A stretch of 63,113 nucleotides of DNA, filler included, from Reclinomonas americana ATCC 50394 (lineage: Eukaryota): NCBI GenBank assembly GCA_048213135.1. It is 7 parts of 5 records of this genome, joined end to end, with 100 filler letters (N's around TTAATTAATTAA, not from the genome) between each part and the next. Parts side by side here need not be neighbours in the genome. Positions count along the whole stretch, not along the records: positions 12,722 to 23,866 come from PS015655.1; 6 more parts are not named here. One strand, given 5' to 3'. The notes under the pieces were generated by a model. The model did no database searches. It was not told the origin of the DNA and saw only the letters and a program-made list of their open reading frames with translations. How positions within the stretch are numbered: position 1 is the stretch's first letter; every line of letters begins with the position of its first letter. This document shows positions 7,219-58,929 of this stretch, one piece after another. The position numbers and the translations under genes are program-made.

Positions 7219-8280
7219 TCAAAAGGAAGCCTCCAAGAAGAGGAGCCGATAGTGAATGCTCTCTGCATCCTCCACCAAGAAGCAGCGCAGGACAATCTCC
7301 ACAAGGCAGCGGTCGATCGCACCCTGCAGTTCCTGCACTGCACGCATGGCCGAGCGAGCACATTCGAGCTCCTGGCGAGCGTCGCCGCACGGCGTGGACC
7401 ACACCCGCACCGTCCTATCATGGCTGCCACTCGCAATAAACTCACCATGGGGAGCGACGGCGACAGACCGCAGCCACGCAGAGTGACCTTCCAACAGCCG
7501 CACCTGCTGGCCACTTGACAGCGACCACACGCGCACCGTCATGTCCGCACCGCCGCTGATCACATGCCGTCCACTGGGAGAGACGGCAATACCGTTCACC
7601 GTTCTCGTATGTCCCTCCAGTCGCCTCACCTCCTCTCCACTCGCAAGCGACCAAACTCGCACGGTCTTGTCGTAGCTGCCGCTGACGACGAACTCGCCAT
7701 TGGGTGTAACAGCGACGGAAGACACCGTTTCTGCATGTCCCTCCAGCTGTCGCACTTCCTCGCCACTCGCCAGCGACCACACGCGCACCGTGTTATCACG
7801 ACTTCCGCTCACAACATGTTGGCCGTCGGGAGTGACAGCGACGCTCTCAACACCGCGCGTGTGTCCCTGCAGCAGTCGCACCTGCTCACCACTCGCCAGC
7901 AACCACACGCGCACCGTGCTGTCGCCAGCTCCGCTCACAACGTGCTCTCCGTCGGGAGTGAGGACGACTGACTGCACCGAGTACTCGTGTCCAAGAAGAC
8001 GTCGCACCTCCCGTCCGCTCGCCAGTGACCACACTCGAATCGTTCTGTCATAACTCCCGCTCACCACGTGCTGACCATCGCGAGTGACAGCGATAGACCA
8101 CACGCCTCCTGTGTGGCCCTCCAGTCGTTGCACTTCCTGTCCACTTGCCACACACCACACACGGATGGTATGATTCTCGCTGCCGCTCAGAATGTGCTGA
8201 CCACTGGGAGAGATAGTGACAGTCAGCACGAATGAGGTATGTCCGTGCAGGCACTTGTTGAAAAGAGGGGTGGAGGCCAT
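7219..8280 (-). CDS. Intronless WD40-repeat protein (7 highly similar 42-aa repeats plus short helical tail)
   Basis: ATG at 8280. Repeats of the form LEGH...V.S(V/I)AVTPDGQHVVSGS.D.TVRVWSLASG.EV in a single open frame. Confidence 0.9.
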   Translation of the reverse strand: MASTPLFNKCLHGHTSFVLTVTISPSGQHILSGSENHTIRVWCVASGQEVQRLEGHTGGVWSIAVTRDGQHVVSGSYDRTIRVWSLASGREVRRLLGHEYSVQSVVLTPDGEHVVSGAGDSTVRVWLLASGEQVRLLQGHTRGVESVAVTPDGQHVVSGSRDNTVRVWSLASGEEVRQLEGHAETVSSVAVTPNGEFVVSGSYDKTVRVWSLASGEEVRRLEGHTRTVNGIAVSPSGRHVISGGADMTVRVWSLSSGQQVRLLEGHSAWLRSVAVAPHGEFIASGSHDRTVRVWSTPCGDARQELECARSAMRAVQELQGAIDRCLVEIVLRCFLVEDAESIHYRLLFLEASF

Positions 8281-8693
8281 GCGCGTGAGGACGGAGACGG
8301 ATGATGACGCAGGTCGCGGGACTGCGAAGTCAACATAACATGCAGCCTCGCTGCGCCTTTCGCGATCGAGACCTGCTTGCTGCTGAATGCAAACGAAACA
8401 GCGGGAATGCACGCGGACTTGTTTTGCTTTCGATATCCCTTCTGGCCTTCGAATTCTCGAGCTGATGCTCAACTTGTTCGAAGTCGCAGCAGTGGATCCT
8501 ACATCGACGCGCGCGAGAGGGGCCACTTGCGCAGAAAATCCAAGCCGCTGTCGCCAAGTCACGTGCTGATTGGTCTTGGCTCATGGTTCCTTCCCGTTTT
8601 TGGCAATAACAGTGCCACATTTCATTCCTCTTCTCCTCTCCCCTCCGTAAACCTCCCCCCCTCTCCCCTTCCACCCTTCCACCCTCTACCCCA

Positions 8694-11666: not shown

Positions 11667-14600
11667 ATGAGCGCAGGGTCGATGTCGACTCGACGGTGCG
11701 TTCCTCCTTGCCTCTCACTCTCCGTCACACAGGCGGCTATTCGTTCTCATAATGTGTGTCAATTTCCATCGAAAGCAGCACTGTCAGTGTCAGCGAGGAA
11801 GACGACGATGAATTCCTCTTGTCGCCGGTATCTCCTCCGCCTTCTCTCCCGCCTCCGTCTTCCGCAAGGCCGCCGTTGTTGGATCTGCGCAGTGTCGATG
11901 ATGAACATGAGGGCGATCACTGGCTGTCGCGCTGGCAATGGGAACTGGTGACGCTGTTGTTGTTGGTGTTGGGGTACTTTGGCAGGTACTTTTGCACGAT
12001 TCAGTTGCATCAGGTCATTCGTTTGTGGGAGGAGTCGGGTGCGTGCACGTGGCTGTGTGTCTGTGGAGTAAGAGAGTGAGGATTCGCTCACTGTGTCGAT
12101 GGGGGAAAGAGGGCATGTCGGATGCGGACTTTGGAGTGATCCTGGCGGCGGGGTACATTACGGATTGCACGTGTCGTTTCTTATATGGTGCGCTTGGGCG
12201 GGGTGCTGCTTGTGTGTTTGTGTGTGGGAATGTGGGCATGTGGGGTGGCAGTTGGGTGAGATGGGTGGGAAGATGCGCTTTTCTGTCAGCTCAAATCCGT
12301 TATTCCTCTCAGATCGGCGTGCTCTGTCTCGCTCTCTCTCTTTCTCTGATGGAGCTCTGGGCGTTCTCCTACCTTTGCTGGCATTCAGTACGCTGCTACG
12401 TCAAGAGGATTCCTTCCTTGCTCACTCTGCGCTCGTTGAGCGTGGCCTCCTTTTAATGTGGGCTGCTGTCTCCTCGCTCGCTCCTGCATCATTTAACAAT
12501 TCCTTTCATCGCTCGCTTCTGTGCCCGTTGAGCGTGTCATCTTCTTCCCTCGCTCGCACTCAGAGCACTACTGATCGCAGGATACGCTCCTTCCTTTGCT
12601 GCACCTGTACGTGCTGAGGACNNNNNNNNNNNNNNNNNNNNNNNNNNNNNNNNNNNNNNNNNNNNTTAATTAATTAANNNNNNNNNNNNNNNNNNNNNNN
12701 NNNNNNNNNNNNNNNNNNNNNGGGGAAGACCGAAGGGGGAAGACGAAGGGGGAAGACCGAAGGGGGAAGACCGAAGGGGGAAGACGAAGGGGGAAGGGGA
12801 AGGACAGGGGGAAGACGGAAGGGGGGAAGTGAAGGGGGGAAGCAAANNNNNNNNNNNNNNNNNNNNNNNNNNNNNNNNNNNNNNNNNNNNNNNNNNNNNN
12901 NNNNNNNNNNNNNNNNTCCTCCGACTTCCCCCTTCCCTCATCCCCCTTCCGTCCTTCCCCCTTCCGTCTTCCCCCTTCCGTCTTCCCTTTCCCCCTTGAC
13001 CCCTTTTCCGCTCCCCTCCCTTCGCCTCTCCCCACAGGGCCGCACCATGAGCGTCATGTCCATTTCGTACCTCGGCGGCAGCGTGCTCGTGCGCAGCACC
13101 ATCGGGGCCATGATCTCGGCGGGCTCGACGTGGCGCCAAGTGTTTGTCGCGTGTGGCATCATGGCCTTGCTGCTCAACGTGCCTGCGTACTTGTTCCTGC
13201 GCGACTCGCCCGAATCAGTTGCGTGGGTGGCGATGAAGGGGTGGAGAAGCTGCTTTCATTTTGCTGAAGCTTCCGCTTGCAGATCGGATTCCCTCCGGTT
13301 GTTTACAATCGTGCGTGTCTCGTCAATCTGCATTTTAGTCTTCGGCTGCTCACACTCATTTTGGCGTCTGTGCGCCAGGTGACGACTTGCCCCAATCCAA
13401 TCTCACTCCCGCTCAAGAGCAGCGAGCCTACCGGGCGCTGCTGCTGCGCATCGCCAAGACTCGCGTGTTTTGGGTGGTGGCCATTCTGGCGATGCTCATC
13501 TTTAGCATTCGAGAGGTTGGTGACGCGGCGGATGCCTTGATACTCCAACTTGTGATTGATCACGTTCCTCTGCAGTTTTTCCTCTCATACGCTTCCAAGT
13601 TCATCGCTTTCGTGTACTGCGCCTCACGACTAGAAGACGGCGTGCTCGGTATATGTGCTTTCCGCCTTCCTCTTCCTCACTTCACGTGCTCACACGTAGT
13701 GCAGCGCTGCCGGAGGTGATGGGCCAGTGCCTGAACTCGCCCGCCGCCAACTCCTTCGCCGCGTACACCTCCAGCTTCATGCCGCTGGCTGGTATAATAT
13801 CGTCGCTGGGTGCTGGCTGGATCCGAGATCGCACACCGAAGCAGGGTCGCGCCCTGCTCATGCTGGCGTACATGTGCATCCTCTTCCTCGCGCTCAATAT
13901 TATGCTCTGGAGCAGCTCACCAGGTGAGAGTGATTCTTGCGATGGTTGGTGGGTGGAGAAGTGAAATCTTACCTTTTGTCGCAGGACCACCTCCTTCGCT
14001 GACCCTCAGCGCCTCGGCGGTAATCATGATGGGCTTTGGCATCATTGGACCGTACTCGCTCATCGGCGGTGTCTTGGTCCTCGAGATTGGCGGTTCGTCC
14101 TCACCTTGCAGCGAGTTGTGCATTTGGTTCTCGGTGCTCACTTCTCCTTGAACTTTCACAGGCAAACAGGTGCGACTCGATAAAACCCCTGTGTCTGCGC
14201 CATCACCTGTCTCACTCTGTTCTCCTGCAGGCATCGTCGGCAGTCAGCACAGCCATTGAATGTTGCGTGCTTTCACAAGCGTGAGCATTCTTGTCGTTGT
14301 TTCTGCACTCCTTGTTGTCGGTCTTGTACTTCTTTGTATCGTCGCACCCTTGTCTTTGTCCCTCCACTTCGTCTTTCCTCTGTCGCCTCACTCGTTGGCA
14401 TCATCGTCCATTCCTTCATTTTTCTCCCACTCTTTCCCCTTCTCTTCCCCCCACTCCCATTCTCGTCCCCCCATTCTCTTCCCCCACACTTCCCCCTCTC
14501 TCCCCCCTCCCAGCGTTCGGCATGCTCGGCACCTGCGTGATCATCCTGATCAGCTCAACGCTGATCTCGAGCTGGATCGGCACCTTCCGCCTGCTCATCG

Positions 14601-15116: not shown

Positions 15117-17197
<2,081 letters not shown>

Positions 17198-17262
17198 CAC
17201 AATAAACACAACAATCAGACAATCCGTCCTGCGCAGGACACGGGTCGACATCGATTCCCGAC

Positions 17263-20200
17263 ATGGACGAGAAAGCAGTGACGTTTTCGACTCCGGGCGA
17301 CGCGCCTCTACGCGCGCGCGGACACGCGAGCAGCAGCAGCAACGGCGCCTCCTCTGCCGCACTGCTGGGCGATGCAGGCGACGAGGCAGCAGCAGCAGCA
17401 GCAGCTCCCTCCACCACTGTCGAATATGAGTGCCCAGTGGGCGATGCAGCGCGCAGAGTTACTCCCCATGTGTGCGAGTCATCGTCCAATGAGTGTGTGC
17501 TCACTCGCTCCGTACAGGTTCCGTTGATTGATGACGATCGCGTGGCGCTGTTGACTCGATTTGGATCCAGCTTTGCGGTGCTGCGTCTTGCCGCCGTTCA
17601 TCACAAAGCGAAGGACGCCGACGACGATGACGATGCGTGTTTGGTGATGATTCACGTGTCGCCGGCCTTTGCGAGGAACACCGGCTATCATGCGTCGGAG
17701 CTGCTCGGGAAGCCGGTGGCGTTCCTCGGGCATCAGAGGTCAGTGATTGGTCTGACCATTCGCGCGCCGGAGTCGGAGTTCCATTACGGGCGATGTTTAC
17801 ATATCGATGTGCATTGTGTAGTGAGCACTGTGAGGGTGATGTGCGGAATGAGATCAATGCGCAGGCGCGGCGGGATATGATGCGCAATGTGCACTCGGGC
17901 GATGAGTTCTCGGTGCGATTTCTGCATTTCCATCGGAATGGCACCGAGTTCTGGAACCTCCTGCACTTCTTCCCGCTGGAGGGCATCGAGAGCGGCCATG
18001 TGCAGGATAGTCTGCAGCATGTGTTGCCGAAGTATTTCATGGCCGTGCAGTGTGGTGAGTATAGGAGAGACACGGAGGAGTCGTTCGGAGCGCTGATCGT
18101 GTGCGGATAGATGTGACGCGCATGGAGGACTCGTCGGAGGACCACTCGGAGGTGGAGCCTCGGCATGCCATGGCCGCGTCTGCAGTGCCTCTGCTCTCCA
18201 AGGCCGACGAGTTGCGTCCCTCGCAAGGGAGGGAGAGATGGGAGCAGGGAGAGAGACATGTTTGTGTTTGTCTACGGAGTCTCACTGGGCTGGACATCTG
18301 AATCTCGGGCACAGTGACGAGGAGGATCGGAACACGCGCGGCATCTCCTTCCGCCACAACACCGTCAGTCTCGACTTTTACAACCTGTCGTACCACGTCG
18401 AAAGCAGTGGAGTGGGATCGTCGCAGAACGTGCGTCGCCAGATTCTCGACAACATTGAGGGTTTTGCCCGTCCCGGCCAGTTGTTGGCTGTTGCGTTCAT
18501 GACGGACGGGCTTGTCGGGGGGAGTGCTCCGCGCGTCTCTGATCGCCGATGCTCATTCATGACGTTTTGTGCAGCTCATGGGTCCGTCGGGAAGCGGCAA
18601 GACGGTACGCACCTACGACAAGGAGGAGAGCAAGGGAGTGAGAATCGGCGATGCTAAATGACTTGTCGCCTCCCCGTGCAGACTCTTCTCTCCATTCTCG
18701 GCAGTCGCATCTCGCACAATGTCACCGGCACCATTCTCTTCAACGATGGGCCGCCCACCAAGCAGACCAAGCGCACAACCGGCTACGTGCTGCAAGAAGT
18801 TGCGTGAAGCGGCCAGCCTCGCATCACATAGGTTTTCTGTTTCTCATTCGCCCTGTTCCTTCCCTTCTTTCGCCTGTTCCTCCCGCCTGTTACTTCCCCG
18901 CTTCTCCCCTTCTCCCTCCCGTGTCTCTTACCTTCTTCTCCTCTTCTCCTTCCACGTTTCATTCCTCCCTCCTCCTTCCCTGCTCCTTCCCTCTTTTCCT
19001 CCCCCTTCTCCTTCCCCTTTTTCCTTCCCCCTTTTCCTTCTCCTTCCACGTTTTATTCCTCCCTCCTCCTTCCCTGCTCCTTCCCCCTTTTCCTCCCCCT
19101 TCTCCTTCCCCTTTTTCCTTCTCCCTTTTCCTTCTCCCTTGCCTCCCACTCCTCACCCCCTTCTCCTTGTTTCCCCTTCTCCTCACCCTTCCCGTCTGCG
19201 CAGGACATCATGTTCAGCAACCTGTCGGTGCGCGAGACGCTGCTGTGCACGGCTCGATTGCGCCTACCGCAGCGACTGTCGCTGGCGGAGAAGGAGCGAG
19301 CGGTGAGTGGGAGATAAGTGTCGCCTGTCGCCATGCACCGCATGATTCTGACCGCTCCACAGGTCGACATGGTGCTCAGCACGCTCGGCCTCTCGCACGT
19401 GCAGGTCGGTGGTGCACCATTGTAGTGCCTCCTTCACTGTCTCAAGCGTGTTGCCGCCACACAGAACTCCCTGATTGGATCGGCGTGGACGCGCGGCATT
19501 AGCGGCGGCGAGCGCAAGCGTGTGAATATCGGCAATGAGGTGCTGATCGATCCAAAGGTGTGTGCTCGCTTCCGTCGTCATTTTCCCCCGGTGTATTTGC
19601 TGTGCTGAGTCCTGCCACAGTTGCTGCTGCTTGACGAGCCCACAAGGTGAGCTTGCTGCTGGAAACGCAGAGGATCGAGAGCCATATTCCTCACGCTTTC
19701 AGCACAGTGGTCTCGATTCGAGCACCGCGTACGGTCTGATCAAGACGCTGCGAGCAATGGCCAGGAACGACAGGAGGACAGTGGTGAGTGTGCGCCGCTT
19801 GTTCTACTTTTTTTGCTGTCTGTGACTCTGACAAGGTGGCCACACAGATCTGGTTTGTTTTTATCGCTTCCGTTTTGTGCTCCGTTTTTCGGAGATGTCT
19901 CACCTGTTTCCATTTTTCAACTCGGCGGCCCGACAGCTCCATTCATCAGGTATTTTGTGTTTTTTCCTCTTTCGTGTCTCCTGCACTCGCTGACGCCGCT
20001 CCTCCTCCTCCTCCTCCTCCGCAGCCGTCATCGGAGATCTTTGAGCTGTTTGACAATTTGCTCTTCCTCGGTGCGTCGCTCCTGTGTCTCCTCCTTGTCC
20101 GTGAAGAAGAATGACACTGAATATTTGCTCAACTCCGACAGCCGGCGGCAAGCCCGTTTACTTTGTTGCGTTGCACACGTCCTCCAACGTGTGTGAGAGA

Positions 20201-22401
20201 GTGCATGCCATGTCTGACAGCGAGCGCAGGGACCCATCCGAGAGGTGGTGCCGTACTTTGAGAGTCTCGGATACCGCTGCAAGGATAATTACAACCCGTC
20301 GGACTACATCATGTCGTTGGTGACGCCGGGCATGCATGTTGCGTGACTTGATGTCGCACCTTTGCCTCTCCCGCTCTCGTAATCTCACTCTCGGCGTGCA
20401 GCACAACACGAGCGACATTTGCAAGCATCTGACCGACGCGTACACGTACAAGTACACTCCGTCGCCAGAGGACGAAGAGCAGGGGCTGCCGGCGGTGCAG
20501 CCACACCACGTCCACGTGAATGTGCCGCACAGCAAGGAGGAGGAGAGGGAAGAGACGGCGTCGTATGACGTCTCGTGGTGGGAGCAGGTGCGTTTGCAGT
20601 TAAAGAAGATGGATTAATGAGCAAGCATGCTGACTTTCGCTTTGCAGTTCAAGGTGCTAACCTGGCGCTCGTTCAAGCAAACGCGTGGCGACATCTTCAC
20701 ATGGACGCAGACAATTCAAGTTTCGTCGTCGTCGTCCAATCTCGTTGGTTAGGGATGATGCTGATTGCTTGCCTGATAGATTATTTCGACGATCCTGGTG
20801 GTCGGCTTCTTGTGGTATCGCATTCCGGAGGATGCAGCCTCGTTGCAGGACCGACGTGGCGCAGTGTTCTTCAACGTCGTCTTCTGGGCGTTCTTCCCGC
20901 TCTTCAATGCGCTCACACTGTGTTGCGTGGCACTCCCGGCGTCGAGAGAGAGTGNNNNNNNNNNNNNNNNNNNNNNNNNNNNNNNNNNNNNNNNNNNNNN
21001 NNNNNNNNNNNNNNNNNNNNNNNNNNNNNNNNNNNNNNNNNNNNNNNNNNNNNNNNNNNNNNNNNNNNNNNNNNNNNNNNNNNNNNNNNNNNNNNNNNNN
21101 NNNNNNNNNNNNNNNNNNNNNNNNNNNNNNNNNNNNNNNNNNNNNNNNNNNNNNNNNNNNNNNNNNNNNNNNNNNNNNNNNNNNNNNNNNNNNNNNNNNN
21201 NNNNNNNNNNNNNNNNNNNNNNNNNNNNNNNNNNNNNNNNNNNNNNNNNNNNNNNNNNNNNNNNNNNNNNNNNNNNNNNNNNNNNNNNNNNNNNNNNNNN
21301 NNNNNNNNNNNNNNNNNNNNNNNNNNNNNNNNNNNNNNNNNNNNNNNNNNNNNNNNNNNNNNNNNNNNNNNNNNNNNNNNNNNNNNNNNNNNNNNNNNNN
21401 NNNNNNNNNNNNNNNNNNNNNNNNTTCGGTCCGTACCACGCACGCGCCTCCTCTCTCCTCTCCCCCCTCCCTCCCTCCTCCCTCCCTCCTCGCCCTCCCC
21501 TCCTCGCCCTCCCTCCTCTCTCTCTCTCTCTCCGTCTTCCTCTCTGTATGTGCTCATGCTGTCGCGTGCGCAGGTGTATCCCTTCGTGTACGCCACCTGC
21601 ATCAACTACATTGTTGGTCTTGGCGACTCACCACGTACGTCGCATGCATGCGTGTGGCACTATCGTTGTCTGCCCCTCACCTCGTGTGCAGGCATCTACT
21701 TCAAGTTCCTCGTGGTGGTGCTGATTTCGGCGCAAGTGTCCTACTCCATCGGCCTGGCGATTAGGTGCGTGCCCACCACTGAAATGGGCTCTGCGAATCC
21801 ACAAAGCTCACACCTCGTCGCCAACCACAGCACGGCGGTGATGGATCTGAAGAAGGCCATGACGTTTGCCACCATTCTTACTCTTGGTTTCATGCTTCTC
21901 GGCGGGTTCGTGATGCCGTGAAGAGCGCCCGTTTCTCACAGTCGCCTCTCACCATTGCTTGGTGTGGTATAGTTTCTACATTGCACCCGATCACATTCCC
22001 GTGTGGCTGCGGTGGATTCGGTGGGTCTCCTTTATCAATGTTGCGTTTTCTTGCCGGTGGTGCGAGCCTTCTTGTCCCCTCGTGAAAACTCATTGCTCCT
22101 TCACAGTACACATACTCGTCCGCCATCAAAACGGTCGTCGAAGGGCGCGACTTCCCGTGCACAAGTACGTCGGATTGTGTTCCTCACTCTGCATACTTCG
22201 TACTCACGCGCCAGTCATTGGCTGCGATTTGCAGACGTCGCCGACTCCATCTACAATGCGTGCCCGGTGACTGGCGACAACATTCTATCGCACGAAAATC
22301 TCACGCCTTTCAGCTACGGTATCGACATCCTGGTGCTCATCGGCTACGCCCTGTTCTACCGCGTGCTGGCCTACGTGTTCCTGCGTATCAAGGGCCGCTA
22401 A
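17263..22401 (+). CDS. ABCG (White-family) half transporter with an N-terminal LOV-like PAS domain
   Basis: PAS: IHVSPAFARNTGYHASELLGKPVAFL...HFHRNGTEFWNLL...YFMAVQCDVT. ABC: LMGPSGSGKT, GYVLQED, ISGGERKRV, LLLDEPTSGLDS, TVICSIHQPS, YNPSDY. These are followed by an ABC2 membrane domain (LLGGFYI, IPVWLRWIRWVSFINY) and a stop at 22401. All visible junctions splice in frame. Confidence 0.85.
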
Positions 22402-22488: not shown

Positions 22489-23640
22489 TTACACGATCTT
22501 GTTGGTCAGATCCGACAGCGCCTGCACCATGGCTCGCGACAGCTCACCAATTTCGTCAGCGCGACTCACCAGGGGCTCCATCGGCGGCTTCAGGCTCAGG
22601 AAGTTGTTCAGCGCCAGCTCACATCGCTCGGTGCTGAGAGAGAAAAGAGAATGTGAGTTCTCACAGAAGACTTGCAGTGCACATCGCCAATCGACGAACC
22701 GTTCTTCCCGGGCCGGATCTGGTCCAATGCTCGTGCGCGCGGCAAGTGTGTCTCGAATCACAGCCGAGAACCCGGTGAACAGGACGCGGGCGGCCCGCAA
22801 CGCGGCAATCACATGTCTGCAGACAATGAATTAGAATAGAGACATTCTCCCCACTCCTCTGTCTTCGACGTGACACGCAACGACTGGAAACCGGAATTGA
22901 GCAGGGTTCGCAGCATGGGGAGAAGCATGGTGCAATGGTCGAGTTTGAAGTACATCAGGCGCGATTCATCGCTAAACAGCTGATTGAGGACATCGACCTG
23001 CAAGCACGCACCGGAAATGAGCTACCAACGTCGCCGAGAAAACGGCAACACCCACTTGATCACTCACTTGCGACGACGGATCGGCCAAGCGAGTGAGCGC
23101 CTCCACAGCGCCCCTCACATCTCCATTCGCCCACAGAGTTCGCACGACCTTGATGTTGGTTTGACGCATGGCGAGAATGCCGCACATGGTGTTGTGCTCC
23201 CTCAGCAGAGCCTCTATGATTTCCGCGTCGCTGTGTGACAGCGGCGTTGGTCCCTCCTGCTCGCCAGCAACGAGAAGGAAGAATTGAGAGTGAGACATGA
23301 GAGTGAGGACGGCGCTGGCAGAAAATCCCACGCACCACTTGTGGCATGAACTGCTTAATGTCGAGTCCGAGAGGAGCGTCGGTGGGGGCACGGATAAAGG
23401 TGCGCGCCATTTCATCGTCCTGGTCGGGTCCACCAGATGCCACAGCTACGCCACAGAAAAAGGGTGAGGAAGAACAATCAAATGCTGGTCGAGCAGTTGT
23501 ACTTGTTACTCACCAGCAGCGGCCAGCCGTACAGATGCTGGAATCGGCCGTGGTGGCGCTTGGGAAGAGGACGGCGCGGCAGGAGCGGGAGCGGGTGCTG
23601 GTGCTGTGGGGGCGGCAGTTGGCTGGGAAACTGCAGAAGA
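22489..23640 (-). CDS. KATNB1: Katanin p80 subunit C-terminal (con80) region, 5'-partial
   Basis: PLGLDIKQFMP, HNTMCGILAMRQTNIKVVRTLWANGDVRGAV, LDHCTMLLPMLRTLL and AREERFERC, with stop at 22489. Could also be KATNBL1-like. Confidence 0.8.
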
Positions 23641-23774: not shown

Positions 23775-23975
23775 AGAGACGAAGAAGTAAGACAGTAGAG
23801 AAGGTAGGAGTAGAGAGTAGGAAGGGAAGGTAGGAGGAGGACGACGACGAAGAAGTGTGTGAGTAGNNNNNNNNNNNNNNNNNNNNNNNNNNNNNNNNNN
23901 NNNNNNNNNNTTAATTAATTAANNNNNNNNNNNNNNNNNNNNNNNNNNNNNNNNNNNNNNNNNNNNCCCCTCTCT

Positions 23976-26004
<2,029 letters not shown>

Positions 26005-26465: not shown

Positions 26466-27028
26466 NNNNNNNNNNNNNNNNNNNNNNNNNNNNNNNNNNN
26501 NNNNNNNNNTTAATTAATTAANNNNNNNNNNNNNNNNNNNNNNNNNNNNNNNNNNNNNNNNNNNNTCGCCACCCTCTTTTGATCATGAGGCGAAGCGACG
26601 AGAATGCCTGGTGCCGTCAATTTTGTAGGAGAGGGAGACACGGCTGTGACCTGGGAAGGTTCGAATTGCAAGTCTCCGTTGCCTATGTCGATGTTGTCCA
26701 TCTGTCCGGTTTTTCTGAATGCTCATTTTTCGTGCAGCAGCAGGCGGCCCACCGTCAGCCTGGCAGCCTTTCCCCTAATGATGACCACCACCACCCTCAC
26801 CTACACAAGCACTTCCGGTTCGAAACCCACTGCACCGAAGAAAAACGCTCGAATACGTTTACAGCCAGCCGATTTCGGTTTTTCTCCGTTTTTTCCCGGA
26901 CAAAACCGCAGGCTGGAGATCGGTTTGCTCACACTTGCCTCTTTACGTCTTCGAGAGAGCGAAAGCCACTCACACAACAACAACAAACAACAACCCTCTT
27001 CCCTCTTTTTACCACAACCCATCCCATC

Positions 27029-36600: not shown

Positions 36601-39600
36601 GTCCCCGCATGCCGTGGTGGAAAATGTTGCCGTCGACGTAGTGCCCGTGGACAAACCGAGCAGCAGATGGACCGTCATGGCGAACGGTACTGAAGCAGTG
36701 GTGCAGGACCTTGTGCCGGTAACGCAATATCAGTTCGCCATCCGCGGCGGTAATAGTCACGGCGTCGGCCCATTCTCGCCGCTCACAGAGGCCATCACCA
36801 GCGGAAGTGCGTGTTTATTCCGATCGGTCTCCTGTCATACATGACTGTGGCTTACCGATCTCTCCATGTACAGCCAGTAAGCCGTGGCAACCACCGGCAC
36901 CAGTTACTGCTGAGGTGAAATTCAGCTCGGCCACGCTGACTGTCAGACCCCCGACGCAAACCGGCGGCCTGCCCATTCTTCGTATGCGCGCACAAGCTTT
37001 CCTTGTCGGGGCCAAGACCACCATGCCAGAGTGCCCAACATCTGTCACTGGCAGTCCAAAAGTCGATGTGCAGCAGGCGTATCTGGGGACTGTCAACCAA
37101 GTCGCACAGAATATGACCATCTCTATCCTGGAGCCGGAGTCGGTATGTGTGTGTTGTGTTCTCGCTTCCAATGTTCCTTGTGACTAACTCCTGAGTCGGC
37201 ACAGATGTACTTTGTGCAAGTACTGGTGACAAACAGCAAGGGCGCGAGTCCATGGAGCACAGGCATGTGCTTGATGACCACAGTTTCGCAACTGACTGTC
37301 GACACTGTGGAAGGCACCGGCAACGGCATGACCGTCGCCGTACGAGTTCCGTGGAGCAGAAATGAGTTGTCTCTTTGGTTCTGTGTTGAGAGGCGCTGAC
37401 TGCACTTGCACGGCCAGGCATTCACTGACGAGAGATGGAAGTTGGGAACATCTCTTACTGCGAAGGCCAGTGCGAGAGGCATTGACACGTCCGAACTGTC
37501 ATCGCTGACGTATTCTTGGGTGGCGATCTACAAGGAGTTTCGAATACCCATCTTTTACGGTTCATTCACTATTGCTCATCGCGGTTCTGATGCAGGACTG
37601 GGGACGCACGAGTCAAGTACTTTGTGCTGCCAGACTCGGTGGTCACCACTCAGAGTGAGCTGGTCGTACCGGCAACCGCACTGGCTGCTGGCACATTATT
37701 TGCGGTGGAGGTGCGGGTGTCGCACCCCACTCGAGGCACAGGTGGGGGTGGATGAAGTCGCTAACTGTCGGTGTGTGCCTTTCCTCACGCGCACTGCTCT
37801 GTGCAGTGGCCGGCCGACGAAGCACCATCGTGAATGGCGCACCGACGGTGGAGAAGTTCACTGTCGAGCCGTCATCCGGAGTCGCTTTCAACACCACATT
37901 TGTGCTGACGGCCACCAACTGCATCGACACGGATGGCGCTGTGTCGGTCTCATTCTACTACCTTGATCCGCTTACCTCCAACACAATTCCCTTGACTAGC
38001 GCGGATGGGCCGACGTCGTCCACCAGCACCAAGTTGCCCGTCGGCACCATTACTGTGGGTGTGACTGTGGCCGACAAGTACAGTCATCGGTACGTGCAGG
38101 AGGAATGACAGCTGGTGTGACGAGAGGAGTTGCTTACCAACCTGCTGTGATGCATGTGCAGTGTCACGCAAAGTACCACGGTGAGCGTGGTGGCGCCCGC
38201 ATCTGGTCTTGTGGATGCTGCCGCCGGAGCTGCTCTGGACGCGCTGCGTGATGCTGCATCGCTCACGGACGTTGCGTTGGAAATCTCTCTTCCTTTCACG
38301 TGACCTGCACAGTGCTCACTATTTGCTGTGCGACTGCAGAGCTCAGCACGTGCCGCCAAGCAAGTGGGCTCGGTTCTCACTCTTGTGTCGGTGGCGTCCA
38401 CCAGTGGCGGAGCAGTCATGGACACGACGCAGCGTTGCGTTTGTATTTTCGCGTTACATGAGACGCGTTGTCGCTGCGTGCACACTCACTGCTGCCACTC
38501 AGTGGTTTCGAACATCGGCACGTTCTCGAGTGCACTGGTCAATGCTGGTGATGCGGTGTCGTCGGGCCTTCTGTCACCGGATGCTGTCTTCTCGGTGTGC
38601 GGCACACTGGCGTCGGTGCTCTCCACTGGCTCGTCGTCCATCGACACAGCCACTCTCAGTTCGGCCCGCGAGAATCTCGCCACTGCCGTGCTGTCGGCAG
38701 CTGCCACTGGCAAGGCCGGAGTCAGTGATCTCAAATCGCTGCTGTCGGTGGCGTCCACACTGATGGTGGGCATCACCTCAAGCACAAACTCGACATCGAC
38801 GAGTGGCACGAGCACGCGAAGTGTGTCGTTCGACACGCGCGCTATGCAGGCGAGCGATGACACGATTCGGCAGCGCATGGTCTCAGCGCTGCAGGCCGTC
38901 GCAGCACCGGCACTTGCTGTTGCGTTATGTGTGTGCGCATATTATTGCCAGTAGTTGTACTGGTCTCATTCGTGTTCGCAGTCATCATCGACTGGCTTGA
39001 TTGAGATGAGCACTTCCTCGTTTGAATATCGAGCGCACGACATGTCGTCCACGTCGACCGCCACCAACATTGCCTCGTGTGGTTTGTGATGTGATTTGTG
39101 TGGTGCGTATGGAGTTGGATGCGCTGCTAACTGGATTCATGTTGCAGCGTCTGGATGCGCCGCGCAAAACACCACTGCCAACAATAGCACGGTGGTGATG
39201 CTGCCGTCGTCTCTTGTACAGTCAATTACAGGAGCGAGCAGCGAAGTCAGCGCGTTTGTGCAGGTGCGCATTGTGGTGAACGCATGCGGGAGATGTTGTC
39301 GCTTACTCACTGTGCCGTCACAAGATTGATTACAACGGATGCCCGAGTGCCACTGGCACCAACTACACGGCGCTATCTGTCAGCACCGGTCGTTCCTGTC
39401 GGTCGTACTCGGTGCAGGTACGCTTTCTCGCCTTCTCTCTTCCCTAGCCGAGAATGACCGTAGGGATGTCTCCACGTGCAGCGTGGCACCTCGGAGGTCA
39501 GCGTCAGTCAGCTGCAGGAGCCAGTGGTGATGGATGTCAACGAGTGGCAGACGGTGGTGGCCAACTACAGTGCGGTGCTGAGCAAGGCAGCCGCATGTGC

Positions 39601-42600: not shown

Positions 42601-45092
42601 TCTGCGGCGCATGTGGGATCGAACCAAGGAGTTGAGCACGCAGCACACGTGGGTGGCTGCAATGCGCGATCAGCGCACAGACACCATGCGTCGCACACAG
42701 AAGCTAACGGTTGCGTATGGGTCAGCACTGAACCGCTATTCTTGAACTGCCTGTCTCACAGCATGTCATTTGTGGCAGGTGCTGTGGCTCGGCCTGCTGA
42801 TGTGCTGCTGGGTGAACACGCTGATGATCTCGGGAGTCGCGATTGACAACTTTGGTCTGGCTCTCTTCCGTGCTCTCTGGCGTGCGCTGACTGGTAAGTC
42901 TGTGATCGACCCCTCGCAGTCTGTGTGGCGCGTACTCACCCGTCGCATGGTGCAGGTGGATTGCTGGTCGTGCCGGTGGTGTTCATGGCCAGTCTGATGT
43001 TCATGCTNNNNNNNNNNNNNNNNNNNNNNNNNNNNNNNNNNNNNNNNNNNNTTAATTAATTAANNNNNNNNNNNNNNNNNNNNNNNNNNNNNNNNNNNNN
43101 NNNNNNNTGATGAGCAGCTGGAGCGCATCCGTCTGCGCACACTGGAGTGGATGCAGAACGATTTCCGTCGCTTCCTCAACGGCAGTGTAACTCCGATGGC
43201 GTGCCGCCGCACGCAAGACGAATTCAACAGCTGGTGGGCCAACGATGGTCTCAACAATCGAGGTGAGTGATAAAGTGAGCGTTGGCGACTGTACCGGCAA
43301 TAGGAGTCTCCAGGTGGGAACTCACAGAGAGTGTGTCGCACACAGAGAGCCTCATTCGCGTGATGGAGCAATTCTGGCCGGTGCGCATGGAGAAGGCCGA
43401 GTTGCAGCGCATCAAGGACTCGAGCGACTTTGTGTTTGTGGATCCGCCCGGAATGAAGAACAAGGACGGGTCGACGACCACACTGGATGTTGCGTGCGCT
43501 TGTCAGTTTGCGCAGGATTCTCATCAAAGGAAGTGATACGACGCACAACACACAGGATCTCTTTGCGGAGCCCGAGTCGCTACCGAGTTGCATCTTCCTC
43601 CGACCGGGCGTGTATCCGCCCATCACCATTCCGGCGAATTGTCGCACTCGTAGTGGTGCGCTCATTTTGATGGCGCACGAGCCGCAGATGGCAGTGGTGC
43701 AGGTGGAGAACTCGGAGGCATTGCCGCGGCAAGATCGTGTGGCGATTCGTGTCGGTATTGCCTCGCTACCGTTGCTGGAGCCTGCTGTACCTTCCCTGGA
43801 TGAGCCTTCAAGGAGTTCATCCAAGTACCGCATTCACCCCGAGTCCACGGTGCAGACAAGGTCGTCAGATGACACGGAGAACTCTCAACAGCGACTGCGG
43901 CAGCAAACTGCGACCAGTTCCTCCGGCGTGAATCACAACTCCACCGTCAACGCGAGTGACTTGAGCTTCCATCTCAGCAGCGGCCGCGGTTCTGACCGTT
44001 CGCACCATTACCTCGAATCTGCCGGATCTGTCATCGCCTGGAGCGAAGCTACTGCGTCCACCATGTCGGAATTGAGTGGCGCAATTTCATCTTATGGTGG
44101 CCTTGACCGGCTGATTGCTTGCCACGGTGACGGGCATGCCGACTTTGATCTGGAGCCGGAAACTCATCTATCCACTCCGCGCTCCTACTCGGAACGACAC
44201 GACGGCCGACATGCCGACAGCACGCAACATCTCCTGTTCCGACCCGTTTCCGAAGTGCATGTGGAGAATTTGGTTATCTCGCACGACACGCTGCTTGGTT
44301 ACGGACTCGGCGCAGAACTGTGCCCCACCAGCGAGCTGGCGGACCAATTGCAGCAGGCGGCAGGCAACAAGGACAGCGACGCGATTGGTGGACCCGATGT
44401 GCGTGCCAGTGCTGTGCATTACTTTCTTCGCTCTTTGACTGATTGCATGCTGCTGCGCACACAGAGTCGATTGCGCGCCACACCCGGTCGCGTGTTCTTC
44501 AACAAGAACGTGTTCACGAATTGTGTCAAGTCCATCCGCAACCCGAACCCGTTGCGTGGCGTGACGAGCCTCGAGACCAGCGGCAATGTCGTCAAGCGAC
44601 AAGTGCGACTGAAGGAGCCGGTGCCTCCGCAGTTCAAGGTATGGTGGACGCTGTCCGGGTTGGGTGCATTGCTGATTTCGATCCTGATCCACGTGCATGA
44701 CGCAGTCGTGGTGGGAGCACATGTTGTTTATGGTGCGACGACGCCAGTTGCCGTACAACTTGGTGTACGCCAACTACGTGGTGTGCGCATGTCTGGCGGC
44801 ATTGGTGACTTTCTTCACGCTGCTGACTGTGGCGGCGTACAAGGAGACACACCAGGATCGCGATGTGGTGAGTGGCGGAAGTGGGTGACGCGAATGAATG
44901 TGGTGCTGGGTCATCTCTGACCTTCGCACTGCCACACAGTTCCTGGGCGCATTGCTCGGCGATCTCGGCCACGCAGCAGTGATCGAACCACTGCGACTGG
45001 TGGTGTGGGAGATGGCACTGTGGGCGTTGGTACGCTGGCTCGGAGTCTACAAGGATACGTATCAGCAGCAGCCGGGTGACACGGATGTTTGA
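27646..45092 (+). CDS. Giant polycystin-1/REJ-like receptor: NHL repeats, Ig/IPT-like domains, ~15 cadherin-like repeats (one with a PA14-like insert), 2 FN3, REJ, GAIN/GPS, multi-TM; 5'-partial, gapped
   Basis: NHL: GYVDDVGSLAQFNNPNGLAID..VFVADT. Cadherin-like: IGTLSAVDAD..TYSVVGG...TVRATDLGG. FN3: VQDLVPVTQYQFAIRGGNSHGVG. REJ: NGAPTVEKFTVEPSSGVAFNTTF. GPS: CVYWD...CASSHLTQF, then a TM helix. PKD1-type membrane motifs: HTWVAAM..RTQKLTVLWL and IEPLRLVV. Stop at 45092. Confidence 0.8.
33656..35650 (+). repeat. Tandem (A-B)x3 duplication of two cadherin-like exons with their introns
   Basis: Exon A (PTDVLLSSTLYIP...FSLNE) at ~33656, 34333 and 35036. Exon B (NVPPTAVHVSS...LLIDE) at ~33991, 34683 and 35372. 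The copies are nearly identical at DNA level. Confidence 0.95.
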
Positions 45093-49600: not shown

Positions 49601-51598
49601 TGCTGTCCAGGAATTTGCATGCCAGTTTATCAATCACGTCGGCTCGAACACAGCACTGCACCAATGTCCGTCTGTGATGGAGGTGATGGGCGGCCTGGCA
49701 CAGTTCCTCACCCGTCAGTGTGTTACGCTTTGTGGCACCGATGATCGGCTGCTACAGTTGCGATACCACTTTCGCCTTCCGTTTGTGTTGGACCAGCTGC
49801 GGCGTGTTAGCGTTCCGGCAGTCGTGAGCTCGCTGACCGACGACGATCAACGAGCATGGGTGGAGGTCACCCTGCACTGTGTGCACACAATGGCGAATGG
49901 CGCGGGCATGTGGCCTTTGGCGCCGGCATGTCTCACCAAGTACATTCAATCGCGTGCGTCAGCAGCGCTGTCAATTCCGGCTCCTGTGCAGGAACTGCTT
50001 GTGAAACCAGTGTGGATATGCGGCTTGCTTGACCGCCTCAAGGAGAAGGAGGTGGCTCTCTGGCCATTGGTGACGCAGATCATGCGGACTCGCGATGCTC
50101 GACTGGGTTTCGTGAGCAATCTCCGTTTGGTGATCCTTTCATGTCTTCTCACTCGCTCACTCTGCAGTGCGAGGTGACGTTCGGCAGCGCATCAGCGAGT
50201 TGGTTCGCATGCAATACCAGGAACTGTGTTGCGAATGCGAGAGCCGTTCTGACGCAGCTGCGGCGGCCATGCACATCAGCAGTCATTCCATCTGCCAGCT
50301 TGCCGAGCTCCTTGTGGTTTCCAAGTACTTGTTCTCCGCTGCGCACAATCGCGAGTGGACGCAACTGATGCTGCGCACGGTGCCGCTCAATTCGCCCTCC
50401 AAAGCGAGAGCTGGCGCGGACCAGCGATGCAGTCTTGGGTTCGCCGCGCTGCATGCCGCACTGTCGCACAAGGATTCGATGCCGGCGGCTGATGCGGAGG
50501 CCGCCGACGAGTACCTGTTTTCTCTGGTCGGCGCACTGGTGGAGGCGCTTTCGTACACCGGGCCTGGTATGCGTTGAGGGAGAGGGAGGGGAAGAGGGAG
50601 AGGGAGAGGGAGAGGAGGGAGAGGGAGAGGGAGAGGGAGTGGGAGAGGAGAGGAGGAGGGGAAGGGAGAGGAGAGAGGAGAGGGAGAGGAGANNNNNNNN
50701 NNNNNNNNNNNNNNNNNNNNNNNNNNNNNNNNNNNNTTAATTAATTAANNNNNNNNNNNNNNNNNNNNNNNNNNNNNNNNNNNNNNNNNNNNAAAGACGG
50801 GCGTAGGCGAAAGAGAGCAGAACGTCACCAGCGTAGGTGACCATCTTGTTTTGCGTACTGAGTTGCGTTTTCTTTGTGCAACCAGGCACGGCGCTCATTG
50901 ATCTCGGCCTTGTTATCGACTACGTGGGCACACTGATGCTGGATGTTGTGCGTGCTATGAACGAAGCAATGAGGCTTTCTCGTCGAGGTATGTGTGCGCT
51001 CGCACGCGTATGTGTCACAGTGTTTCACCGTTCAATTGTTTTTTCCACAGTGCGGTCCCGTATGTGGCTTTTGCTGCGATGTATTCTCGATCCGGCAGCC
51101 GGTCGGCGGCGCCAAGTAGACGAGTACCTGAACATGAGAGTGCCCAACTCGCGGCCGTTGTGCGATCACACCGAGCAGATGCATGTCTCGGAGGTGCTTG
51201 GCCGTGCCTGTGCCGATGAGCTGGAGGAAGAGGAGGCGCATCCTGGTGGCCTCGACGTGGAGGTGCGGAGTGCGATTCTGTTTCTTCATGCGCCGTCGCA
51301 TGCCGATCGCGAGGAAGCTGATTTGCAGCTTGCGCTGCAGCAATCGATGCTGTCATTCGACGGGTATGAGGATCAAGATGACTTGGGTCGTGTGGCCTAT
51401 GGATTTGTTGACGATGTGATGATGGAGGAGGAGGAGGAGGAAGAGGAGGAGATGGAGATTGAGTTTGAGTTTAGTGATGATGACGACGGTGGTTCAGAAG
51501 GAGAGAGAGAAGTGGAGGAGGTGGAGGTGGAGGAGGATGAGGAGGAGGAGTTCGTCGCTGATAGGTCACCGGTTGCATCAGCGGAGTCAGTTCGATAG
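46651..51598 (+). CDS. F-box protein with long predicted helical-repeat region, UIM-like motif and acidic tail (paralog 1)
   Basis: The spliced N-terminus NLPVEIIGV|ISSFLDIDDDFPRLWRTSQGF is F-box-like. The C-terminus has EEADLQLALQQSM then poly-E/D. Spans a linker at ~50737. Confidence 0.7.
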
Positions 51599-58792: not shown

Positions 58793-58929
58793 NNNNNNNN
58801 NNNNNNNNNNNNNNNNNNNNNNNNNNNNNNNNNNNNTTAATTAATTAANNNNNNNNNNNNNNNNNNNNNNNNNNNNNNNNNNNNNNNNNNNNGAGAGAGA
58901 GAGAGAGAGAGAAGCAACAAACGTAGTGT

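Follow-up and report, generated by a model that had tools for sequence, protein, structure and literature searches.

A predicted ABCG half-transporter of Reclinomonas americana with a LOV-derived, probably flavin-free N-terminal PAS domain

Introduction

The LOV domains of phototropins, such as LOV1 of Chlamydomonas (1n9l in the Protein Data Bank, PDB), and those of the PAS/LOV proteins are built on the PAS_9 scaffold and hold flavin by means of an arginine and of asparagine and glutamine side chains. Dimerisation is common among PAS domains, as is docking on an adjacent domain. In KCNH potassium channels, for example, the N-terminal PAS domain ('eag') is of the PAS_9 class, has no known cofactor and docks on a cytosolic domain, through which it controls gating. 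ABCG pumps, which export lipids, hormones, pigments and drugs, include half-transporters that act as dimers and whose ATPase domains must close on each other; to our knowledge, their regulation is through expression, trafficking or phosphorylation and not through a built-in sensor domain. Recently, sequence mining has yielded 13 new algal modular LOV proteins, one of which is named a 'LOV-ABC transporter' in the accessible part of the report (bioRxiv 10.1101/2025.06.20.660589). Here we describe a predicted gene of the eukaryote Reclinomonas americana ATCC 50394, found in a 63-kb stretch of the draft assembly GCA_048213135.1 (the window, meaning the whole of that stretch), in which a LOV-type PAS domain appears to be spliced in frame to an ABCG transporter.

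With a probability of roughly 0.6, the locus is read as a single gene for an ABCG half-transporter of roughly 900-950 residues that would carry, at its N-terminus, one PAS domain descended from eukaryotic LOV domains. This domain keeps the LOV scaffold but most likely has given up flavin and no longer senses blue light. Its role is instead probably that of a regulatory or dimerising module, either without a cofactor or with a different ligand, held beside the nucleotide-binding domain by a flexible acidic linker. A first-pass annotation of the same DNA had already proposed a cysteine-less, LOV-like PAS sensor fused to an ABCG exporter gated by ligand, redox state or possibly light, and its claims are taken up below with the results that bear on them.

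A LOV-type PAS domain spread over three exons

The predicted gene has 24 visible exons on the + strand between 17263 and 22401 and is rich in introns; many short introns are also a feature of the genes in the window. In the model protein, a low-complexity N-terminus is followed by one PAS_9/LOV-type domain (about residues 100-241), an acidic linker of roughly 45 residues, an ABCG nucleotide-binding domain and an ABC2 membrane domain. The model counts 686 residues up to a run of N that interrupts the gene at 20955-21424, and another 170 residues after it up to a TAA stop.

The two halves of the PAS domain lie in exons 1 and 2. Compared with Pfam PAS_9 (PF13426), the exon 1 half matches profile positions 14-39 with 16.8 bits and the exon 2 half matches positions 44-89 with 17.0 bits, both below the cut-off of 27 bits. 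The halves fall on successive positions of the profile and their scores, plainly summed, come to 33.8 bits. In addition, a LOV profile was prepared from ten LOV domains cut from the library proteins matched by exon 2, and the spliced exons were searched against it. The spliced domain reaches 41.4 bits (profile 20-113 of 116, model residues 128-241) and a 150-residue slice reaches 47.0 bits. Reversed, this slice scores 0.3 bits, and none of 1000 shuffles exceeds 3.5 bits. The likeness of the PAS region to LOV domains exceeds chance.

Searches with exon 2 on its own lead to the same family. When phmmer was run exhaustively on 1.84 billion representative proteins, eight matches were obtained at E ≤ 0.001 and none at 1e-10, the best having an E-value of 1.1e-6, 45 bits and 36% identity. 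PAS_9 scores above cut-off in all eight (85-514 bits); two carry a protein kinase domain, and one has RhoGEF, RGS and ten PAS_9 stretches. NCRFLQ-type motifs are present in the seven matches that were retrieved, which are phototropin-like or PAS/LOV-protein-like. Similarly, 67 PDB sequences match exon 2 at E ≤ 1, headed by 1n9l, the LOV1 domain of an algal blue-light receptor (E 4.2e-4), and the 60 that were listed are LOV domains or engineered LOV fusions, save one hypothetical protein. The PAS part of exon 1 has weak PDB matches (21 sequences at E ≤ 10, best 0.039), these being bacterial and plant LOV/PAS sensors. Feature-based look-up of exon 2, which can be taken as a lead only, gave PAS-class clusters exclusively, the best at 0.93 and a KCNH cluster at 0.86.

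The peptides quoted in the first-pass annotation are all found in the model. GKPVAFL ends exon 1, FWN lies within exon 2, and VQCDVT is restored when exons 2 and 3 are joined, so that VQC and DVT meet across intron 2 at the place where the LOV consensus strand has VQ.DVT. As judged from these comparisons, the closest sequence relatives of the PAS region are the phototropin-type LOV domains of algae and plants.

Kept and lost residues of the flavin pocket

Alignment of the model with the ten LOV domains gave 35 near-invariant columns, of which 21 are kept. These include TGY and the E..G of the helix region, the F of the flavin motif, the helix arginine R176, the G..FWN strand with its asparagine N204, and the VQ of the last strand with Q235. 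On the other hand, the Asn-Cys-Arg of NCRFLQ is replaced throughout (N151P, C152V and R153A in model numbering), which leaves valine at the position of the adduct-forming cysteine. The glutamine of the motif has become glutamate (Q163E) and stands behind an insertion of 7 residues, the first pocket asparagine and the adjacent tyrosine are replaced as well (N194H and Y195F), and G233A is a further change in a near-invariant column. As such, the model lacks the GxNCRFLQ photoreceptor motif with its adduct cysteine. Besides the insertion in the flavin motif, the domain has one of 13 residues in the first hairpin and one of 9 residues before the last strand. Within the polar set of the flavin pocket, R176, N204 and Q235 are kept and N194 is replaced by histidine, that is, three of four remain. 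The remodelled pocket would contain more hydrophobic residues as well as histidines.

Phototropin-type LOV domains and PAS/LOV proteins are the closest relatives of both halves of the domain, and the model has in common with the former the FWN strand, the final VQ.DVT strand, the TGY helix region and the helix arginine. It differs from them in having PVAFL and the 7-residue insertion in place of NCRFLQ, in the change of the first pocket asparagine to histidine and in the three loop insertions. Moreover, it has a single LOV-type domain with a membrane transporter as effector, whereas phototropins have a tandem pair with a kinase as effector. Profile, PDB and alignment comparisons bear out the description of the region as a PAS domain of LOV type that lacks the adduct cysteine and keeps the FWN asparagine and the final glutamine. 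The cysteine and the first asparagine are indeed gone, as the first-pass annotation stated, but the loss is wider and takes in the asparagine, arginine and glutamine of NCRFLQ and the tyrosine too.

A natural two-LOV protein of 337 residues among the exon 2 matches (P0008) has glycine at the adduct-cysteine position of its first LOV domain. That domain retains the neighbouring asparagine and arginine, and it represents a milder natural loss of the cysteine than is seen here.

Since the replacements in the flavin site are so wide, flavin-based light sensing by the PAS domain is unlikely. Gating of the exporter by light is unlikely for the same reason, as the asparagine and arginine beside the cysteine, the motif glutamine and the first pocket asparagine are all replaced. 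Cysteine-less LOV variants can still signal by way of a neutral flavin semiquinone, according to the accessible part of one study (PMC5645311). Such signalling needs bound flavin, however, and with an arginine and two polar pocket residues lost, the binding of flavin by this domain appears doubtful.

The ABCG transporter

The motifs of an ABC-type ATPase can be read directly in the spliced model, namely Walker A GPSGSGKT, a Q-loop, the signature ISGGERKR, Walker B LLLLDEPT with its catalytic glutamate, and the H-loop SIHQP. Because all of these are present, the transporter part looks catalytically competent. The nucleotide-binding domain precedes the membrane domain, for which pieces of ABC2_membrane are found at 20780-20953 and 21427-22267, downstream of Walker A. 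These pieces follow one another in the order of the profile (29-71 with 23.2 bits, 153-182 with 13.2 bits and 178-204 with 15.4 bits), and the ABCG-specific family ABC2_membrane_7 is matched at 20218-20343 (profile 26-57, 15.8 bits). Each of them remains below its cut-off because the exons are short.

The best PDB match of exon 6 is Arabidopsis ABCG25 (8i38, E 2.2e-4), and that of a membrane exon is residues 416-456 of ABCG25 (E 3.9e-3), with human ABCG2 next; exon 4 weakly matches a fungal PDR pump in the region just before Walker A. With half-size ABCG proteins (WBC-type), of which ABCG25 is the closest solved, the model shares the order of ATPase before membrane domain, the ATPase motifs and probably the ABC2 domain. 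The difference lies at the N-terminus. The residue after Walker A is number ~110 in ABCG25 and ~340 in the model, and the ~230 extra residues are made up of the low-complexity N-terminus, the PAS domain and the linker.

Probable splicing of the PAS exons to the ABCG exons

Both the PAS and the ATPase exons lie in one N-free stretch (16838-20954), with no spacer between them, and all visible exons of the model chain without a stop. Among the 22 visible introns, 21 are GT-AG and all have YAG acceptors (18 CAG and 4 TAG); their lengths range from 55 to 151 nt, with the single exception of one of 405 nt. Intron 3, which has 104 nt and runs from GTTGCGT to CACAG, is a typical member of this set. 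The GC content at third codon positions (GC3) is 0.75 over 857 exon codons and the GC content of the introns is 0.55.

As the first-pass annotation had read it, the acidic linker continues in frame across intron 3 (18211-18314, GTTGCGT...CACAG) into exon 4, with Walker A following in exon 5. The donor of this intron, GTTGCGT, is the commonest of the gene, where it is used by 6 of the 22 introns and occurs a seventh time before the N gap. All seven copies in the gene (18211, 18490, 18799, 20165, 20338, 20922 and 22040) are on the + strand at inferred exon ends. In the whole window the heptamer is found 39 times against 11.7 ± 3.2 expected, an excess of about threefold that is reached in none of 100 shuffles. 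This organism favours GTTGCGT, an unusual heptamer, at 5' splice sites. With such a donor at 18211, exon 3 very probably precedes an intron rather than being a last exon.

The acceptor side leaves little choice. Between a point 55 nt past the donor and exon 4, the sole YAG is the CAG at 18312-18314, and its use gives the in-frame join. The other AG in this range, at 18278, belongs to GAG; joining there would lead to a stop after 7 codons, and G is found at -3 in none of the 22 acceptors of the gene. Furthermore, the linker portion in exon 3 is exon-like in composition (GC3 in 27 of 32 codons), with a likelihood ratio of about 160 in favour of coding when rates of 0.73 for coding sequence and 0.55 for introns are used, as in all GC3 ratios given here. 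From splice signals, reading frame and GC3, the fusion of PAS to ABCG emerges as the most probable arrangement and is likely to be real. An additional short ABCG form may be made from an internal promoter.

Relatives and earlier descriptions

Relatives of the whole protein were sought in protein libraries that exclude the window's own protein. None of the eight exon 2 matches found by phmmer at E ≤ 0.001 has an ABC domain, and none is close enough to be an orthologue. A word-indexed homologue search returned nothing for exon 1, exon 4 or the read-through of three membrane exons, which is weak evidence, and metagenome scans with exons 2 and 4 found no relative.

A full-text literature search on PAS or LOV domains combined with ABCG or ABC transporters gave one relevant item, the algal preprint of 2025. 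Its LOV proteins conserve the cysteine and the NCRFLQ motif, as far as its accessible text describes them (bioRxiv 10.1101/2025.06.20.660589). The algal LOV-ABC transporter and the present model both come from eukaryotic microbes, both have a LOV-type domain attached to an ABC transporter, and both are known from sequence only. They differ in that the algal protein retains the cysteine and NCRFLQ and the model does not, a comparison that covers the name and the motif description in that text.

The architecture, which had not been recognised in the first-pass annotation, is not wholly without precedent: no PAS-ABCG protein was found in our searches, but the accessible text of the preprint names a LOV-ABC transporter. 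LOV and PAS domains on varied effectors are known, and an ABCG pump with a folded N-terminal sensor was not found described in the literature searched. The present model would add a LOV-type domain on an ABCG pump, in a degenerate and probably flavin-free form.

Proposed function and alternative explanations

Some 45 residues separate the PAS domain from the first strand of the ATPase domain that follows it, and the linker is acidic and contains prolines, which fits a tether better than a rigid helix for signalling. In such a position the domain would influence how the two ATPase domains pair, either helping or restraining this, and with or without a new ligand in its pocket. The nearest functional analogy would be the cofactor-free PAS domain of KCNH channels, which is likewise N-terminal in a membrane transport protein. 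This is an analogy only, as KCNH proteins are channels and the model is an ATP-driven pump, and the sequence link seen is limited to the PAS class. A stronger version, in which the PAS domain is a working sensor of a small hydrophobic ligand, of redox state or of a metal, or retains residual flavin photochemistry, and directly gates ATP hydrolysis and export by the ABCG dimer, has a slim chance of being correct.

Several points weigh against a single gene for a flavin-free PAS-ABCG protein, and they are best considered together with the alternatives. The join is predicted from genomic sequence, and the ATG at 18238, in frame with exon 4, could be the start codon of an ABCG made by itself from an internal promoter. 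There would then be two products, a PAS-only protein from exons 1-3 that reads through to the stop at 18302-18304 or uses a minor acceptor, and a separate ABCG whose transcript starts within 18211-18314, with the in-frame join being coincidental or a minor isoform. It is consistent with this that the exon 4 frame extends upstream without a stop as far as 18097 and contains one ATG, and that read-through past the donor of exon 3 stops after 30 codons. However, exon 4 is free of Met and 18238 is the only in-frame ATG upstream of it, so a stand-alone ABCG must start in an intron-like stretch and the two coding regions would overlap at the tail of the PAS protein. The composition of both stretches is that of an intron, with GC3 in 13 of 26 codons from the ATG in the ABCG frame and in 16 of 30 codons in the PAS frame up to the stop (likelihood ratios for coding of about 1/19 and 1/14, that is, about 19 and 14 against). 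In addition, 18211 bears the favoured 7-base donor, the only alternative AG at least 55 nt downstream is the GAG, of a type unused in the gene, and 104 nt is too short for a promoter together with a terminator. Two separate products are thus an improbable account of the locus.

The remaining doubts concern the PAS domain and the integrity of the gene. The kept helix arginine, FWN asparagine and final glutamine leave some room for flavin binding, and a real fusion might still bind flavin, with cysteine-less reduction by light or redox to the neutral semiquinone gating the pump. Cysteine-less signalling of this kind (in the accessible part of PMC5645311) and the glycine in P0008 would fit such a scheme, but the losses go well beyond the cysteine (Asn to Pro, Arg to Ala, Gln to Glu behind the 7-residue insertion, Asn to His and Tyr to Phe), and a flavin-driven pump is likewise improbable. 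Neither PAS half alone reaches the Pfam cut-off. The sources of the LOV profile were chosen by their likeness to exon 2, which makes the share of the score due to exon 2 (30.8 bits alone) partly circular, although this touches neither the share of exon 1 (11.8 bits alone) nor the gain on joining them. It could also be argued that the PAS domain is a decaying relic, or that the locus is non-functional, being a pseudogene or an artefact of the draft assembly that places unrelated pieces together. No orthologue or other PAS-ABCG protein was found in the homologue, phmmer or metagenome searches. In the PAS domain, the pocket for flavin is degraded and three insertions are present; one intron requires a non-GT donor or a frameshift correction; and the window is draft sequence, interrupted by 27 runs of N, with six-frame-stop spacers between contigs. 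The GA-donor intron (or sequence error) and the part of the membrane domain hidden by N make the intactness of the whole gene open to doubt. Nevertheless, the PAS exons are open, their GC3 over 269 codons is exon-like at 0.70, the scaffold is kept at 21 of 35 positions, all ATPase motifs are intact, neither N nor spacer separates the PAS exons from the ATPase exons, and the visible exons chain free of stops. A relic or an artefact is accordingly considered very unlikely, and the single gene with a flavin-free PAS module is the reading that we prefer.

Gene layout and surrounding sequence

The exons and motifs of the model are collected in Table 1. The modelled start at 17263 is the first ATG of a + strand open frame that begins at 17206. 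Upstream of the gene, 15742-16900 is crowded with microsatellites of the (TG)n and (CT)n types and, on either strand, with open frames rich in Gly, Pro, Gln and His; two runs of N break it up. The only intron of the gene that is not GT-AG in frame lies just before the H-loop exon.

Table 1. Features of the predicted PAS-ABCG gene, with positions counted along the window.
Feature	Position	Strand	Description
Exon 1	17263-17738	+	~95-residue low-complexity N-terminus rich in Ala, Ser and Asp, then first PAS half: first two strands with 13-residue hairpin insertion, TGY helix region, GKPVAFL replacing the LOV flavin motif
Intron 1	17739-17821	+	83 nt, GTCAGTG...TGTGTAG; GC 0.52; PAS halves in different frames
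Exon 2	17822-18054	+	Second PAS half: helix with kept Arg, strands with FLHFHRNGTEFWN, 9-residue loop insertion, last strand to VQC
Intron 2	18055-18110	+	56 nt, GTGAGTA...GGATAG; interrupts the Asp codon of VQCDVT
Exon 3	18111-18210	+	DVT end of last PAS strand and acidic linker
Intron 3 (PAS-ABCG junction)	18211-18314	+	104 nt, GTTGCGT...GGCACAG
Exon 4	18315-18489	+	Remaining acidic linker and first strands of ABCG nucleotide-binding domain; no Met codon
Exon 5	18575-18604	+	Walker A GPSGSGKT, read directly
Exons 6-15	18682-20337	+	Remainder of nucleotide-binding domain, including the Q-loop, and ABCG-specific stretch after it
Signature ISGGERKR	19465-19557	+	
Walker B LLLLDEPT	19621-19646	+	Catalytic Glu present
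Non-GT intron	19786-19936	+	GA donor, GAGTGTG...CGACAG, or 1-nt draft error
H-loop SIHQP	19937-19949 and 20025 onward	+	Exon needs GA-AG intron or 1-nt correction
Exons 16-18	20402-20921	+	Poorly conserved linker, then start of membrane domain
Run of N	20955-21424		Inside the gene; conceals one or more membrane-domain exons
Exons 19-24	21574-22401	+	Remaining membrane domain to TAA 22399-22401; 170 residues free of stops

Antisense and out-of-frame open reading frames with 125 residues or more at this locus matched no Pfam family at E ≤ 0.01, and an overlapping gene on the opposite strand was rejected on that basis.

In 3-kb steps, the GC content of the window is about 0.43-0.58 with the runs of N included. 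Six identical spacers, each composed of 44 N, TTAATTAATTAA and 44 N, are found at 12622-12721, 23867-23966, 26466-26565, 43008-43107, 50693-50792 and 58793-58892, and the other runs of N vary in length. The spacers with TTAATTAATTAA are six-frame stop linkers between contigs, and the window is therefore a series of contigs strung together, as opposed to a single continuous read. Past the ABCG stop, and on the opposite strand, lies a gene with a katanin p80 con80 domain (22975-23445, - strand), and further downstream a class II lysyl-tRNA synthetase gene (23967-25600, + strand) whose 5' end adjoins a contig spacer. Elsewhere in the window are an NAD-dependent epimerase/RmlD-like open reading frame (751-1797, + strand) and one with a match to the REJ (polycystin-type) domain (37659-38105, + strand, 25.8 bits). 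An unbroken open reading frame of 453 residues (7222-8580, - strand) stands amid an intron-rich region and encodes a highly regular WD40 propeller, its best PDB match being 2ymu, 'WD-40 repeat protein', with 609 bits.

Conclusion

If the PAS domain of this predicted protein is only dimerising or vestigial, the gene would be of modest interest, as one more case of domain shuffling, here in a eukaryote from a poorly sampled part of the tree. If it gates the pump, this would be a natural 'sensor-gated ABC exporter' in one polypeptide and a template for engineered controllable pumps; we know of no characterised ABCG for which such a design has been described. A PAS domain wired to the ATPase would demonstrate direct allosteric control of a transporter and would reveal what may become of a LOV domain after the loss of its flavin.

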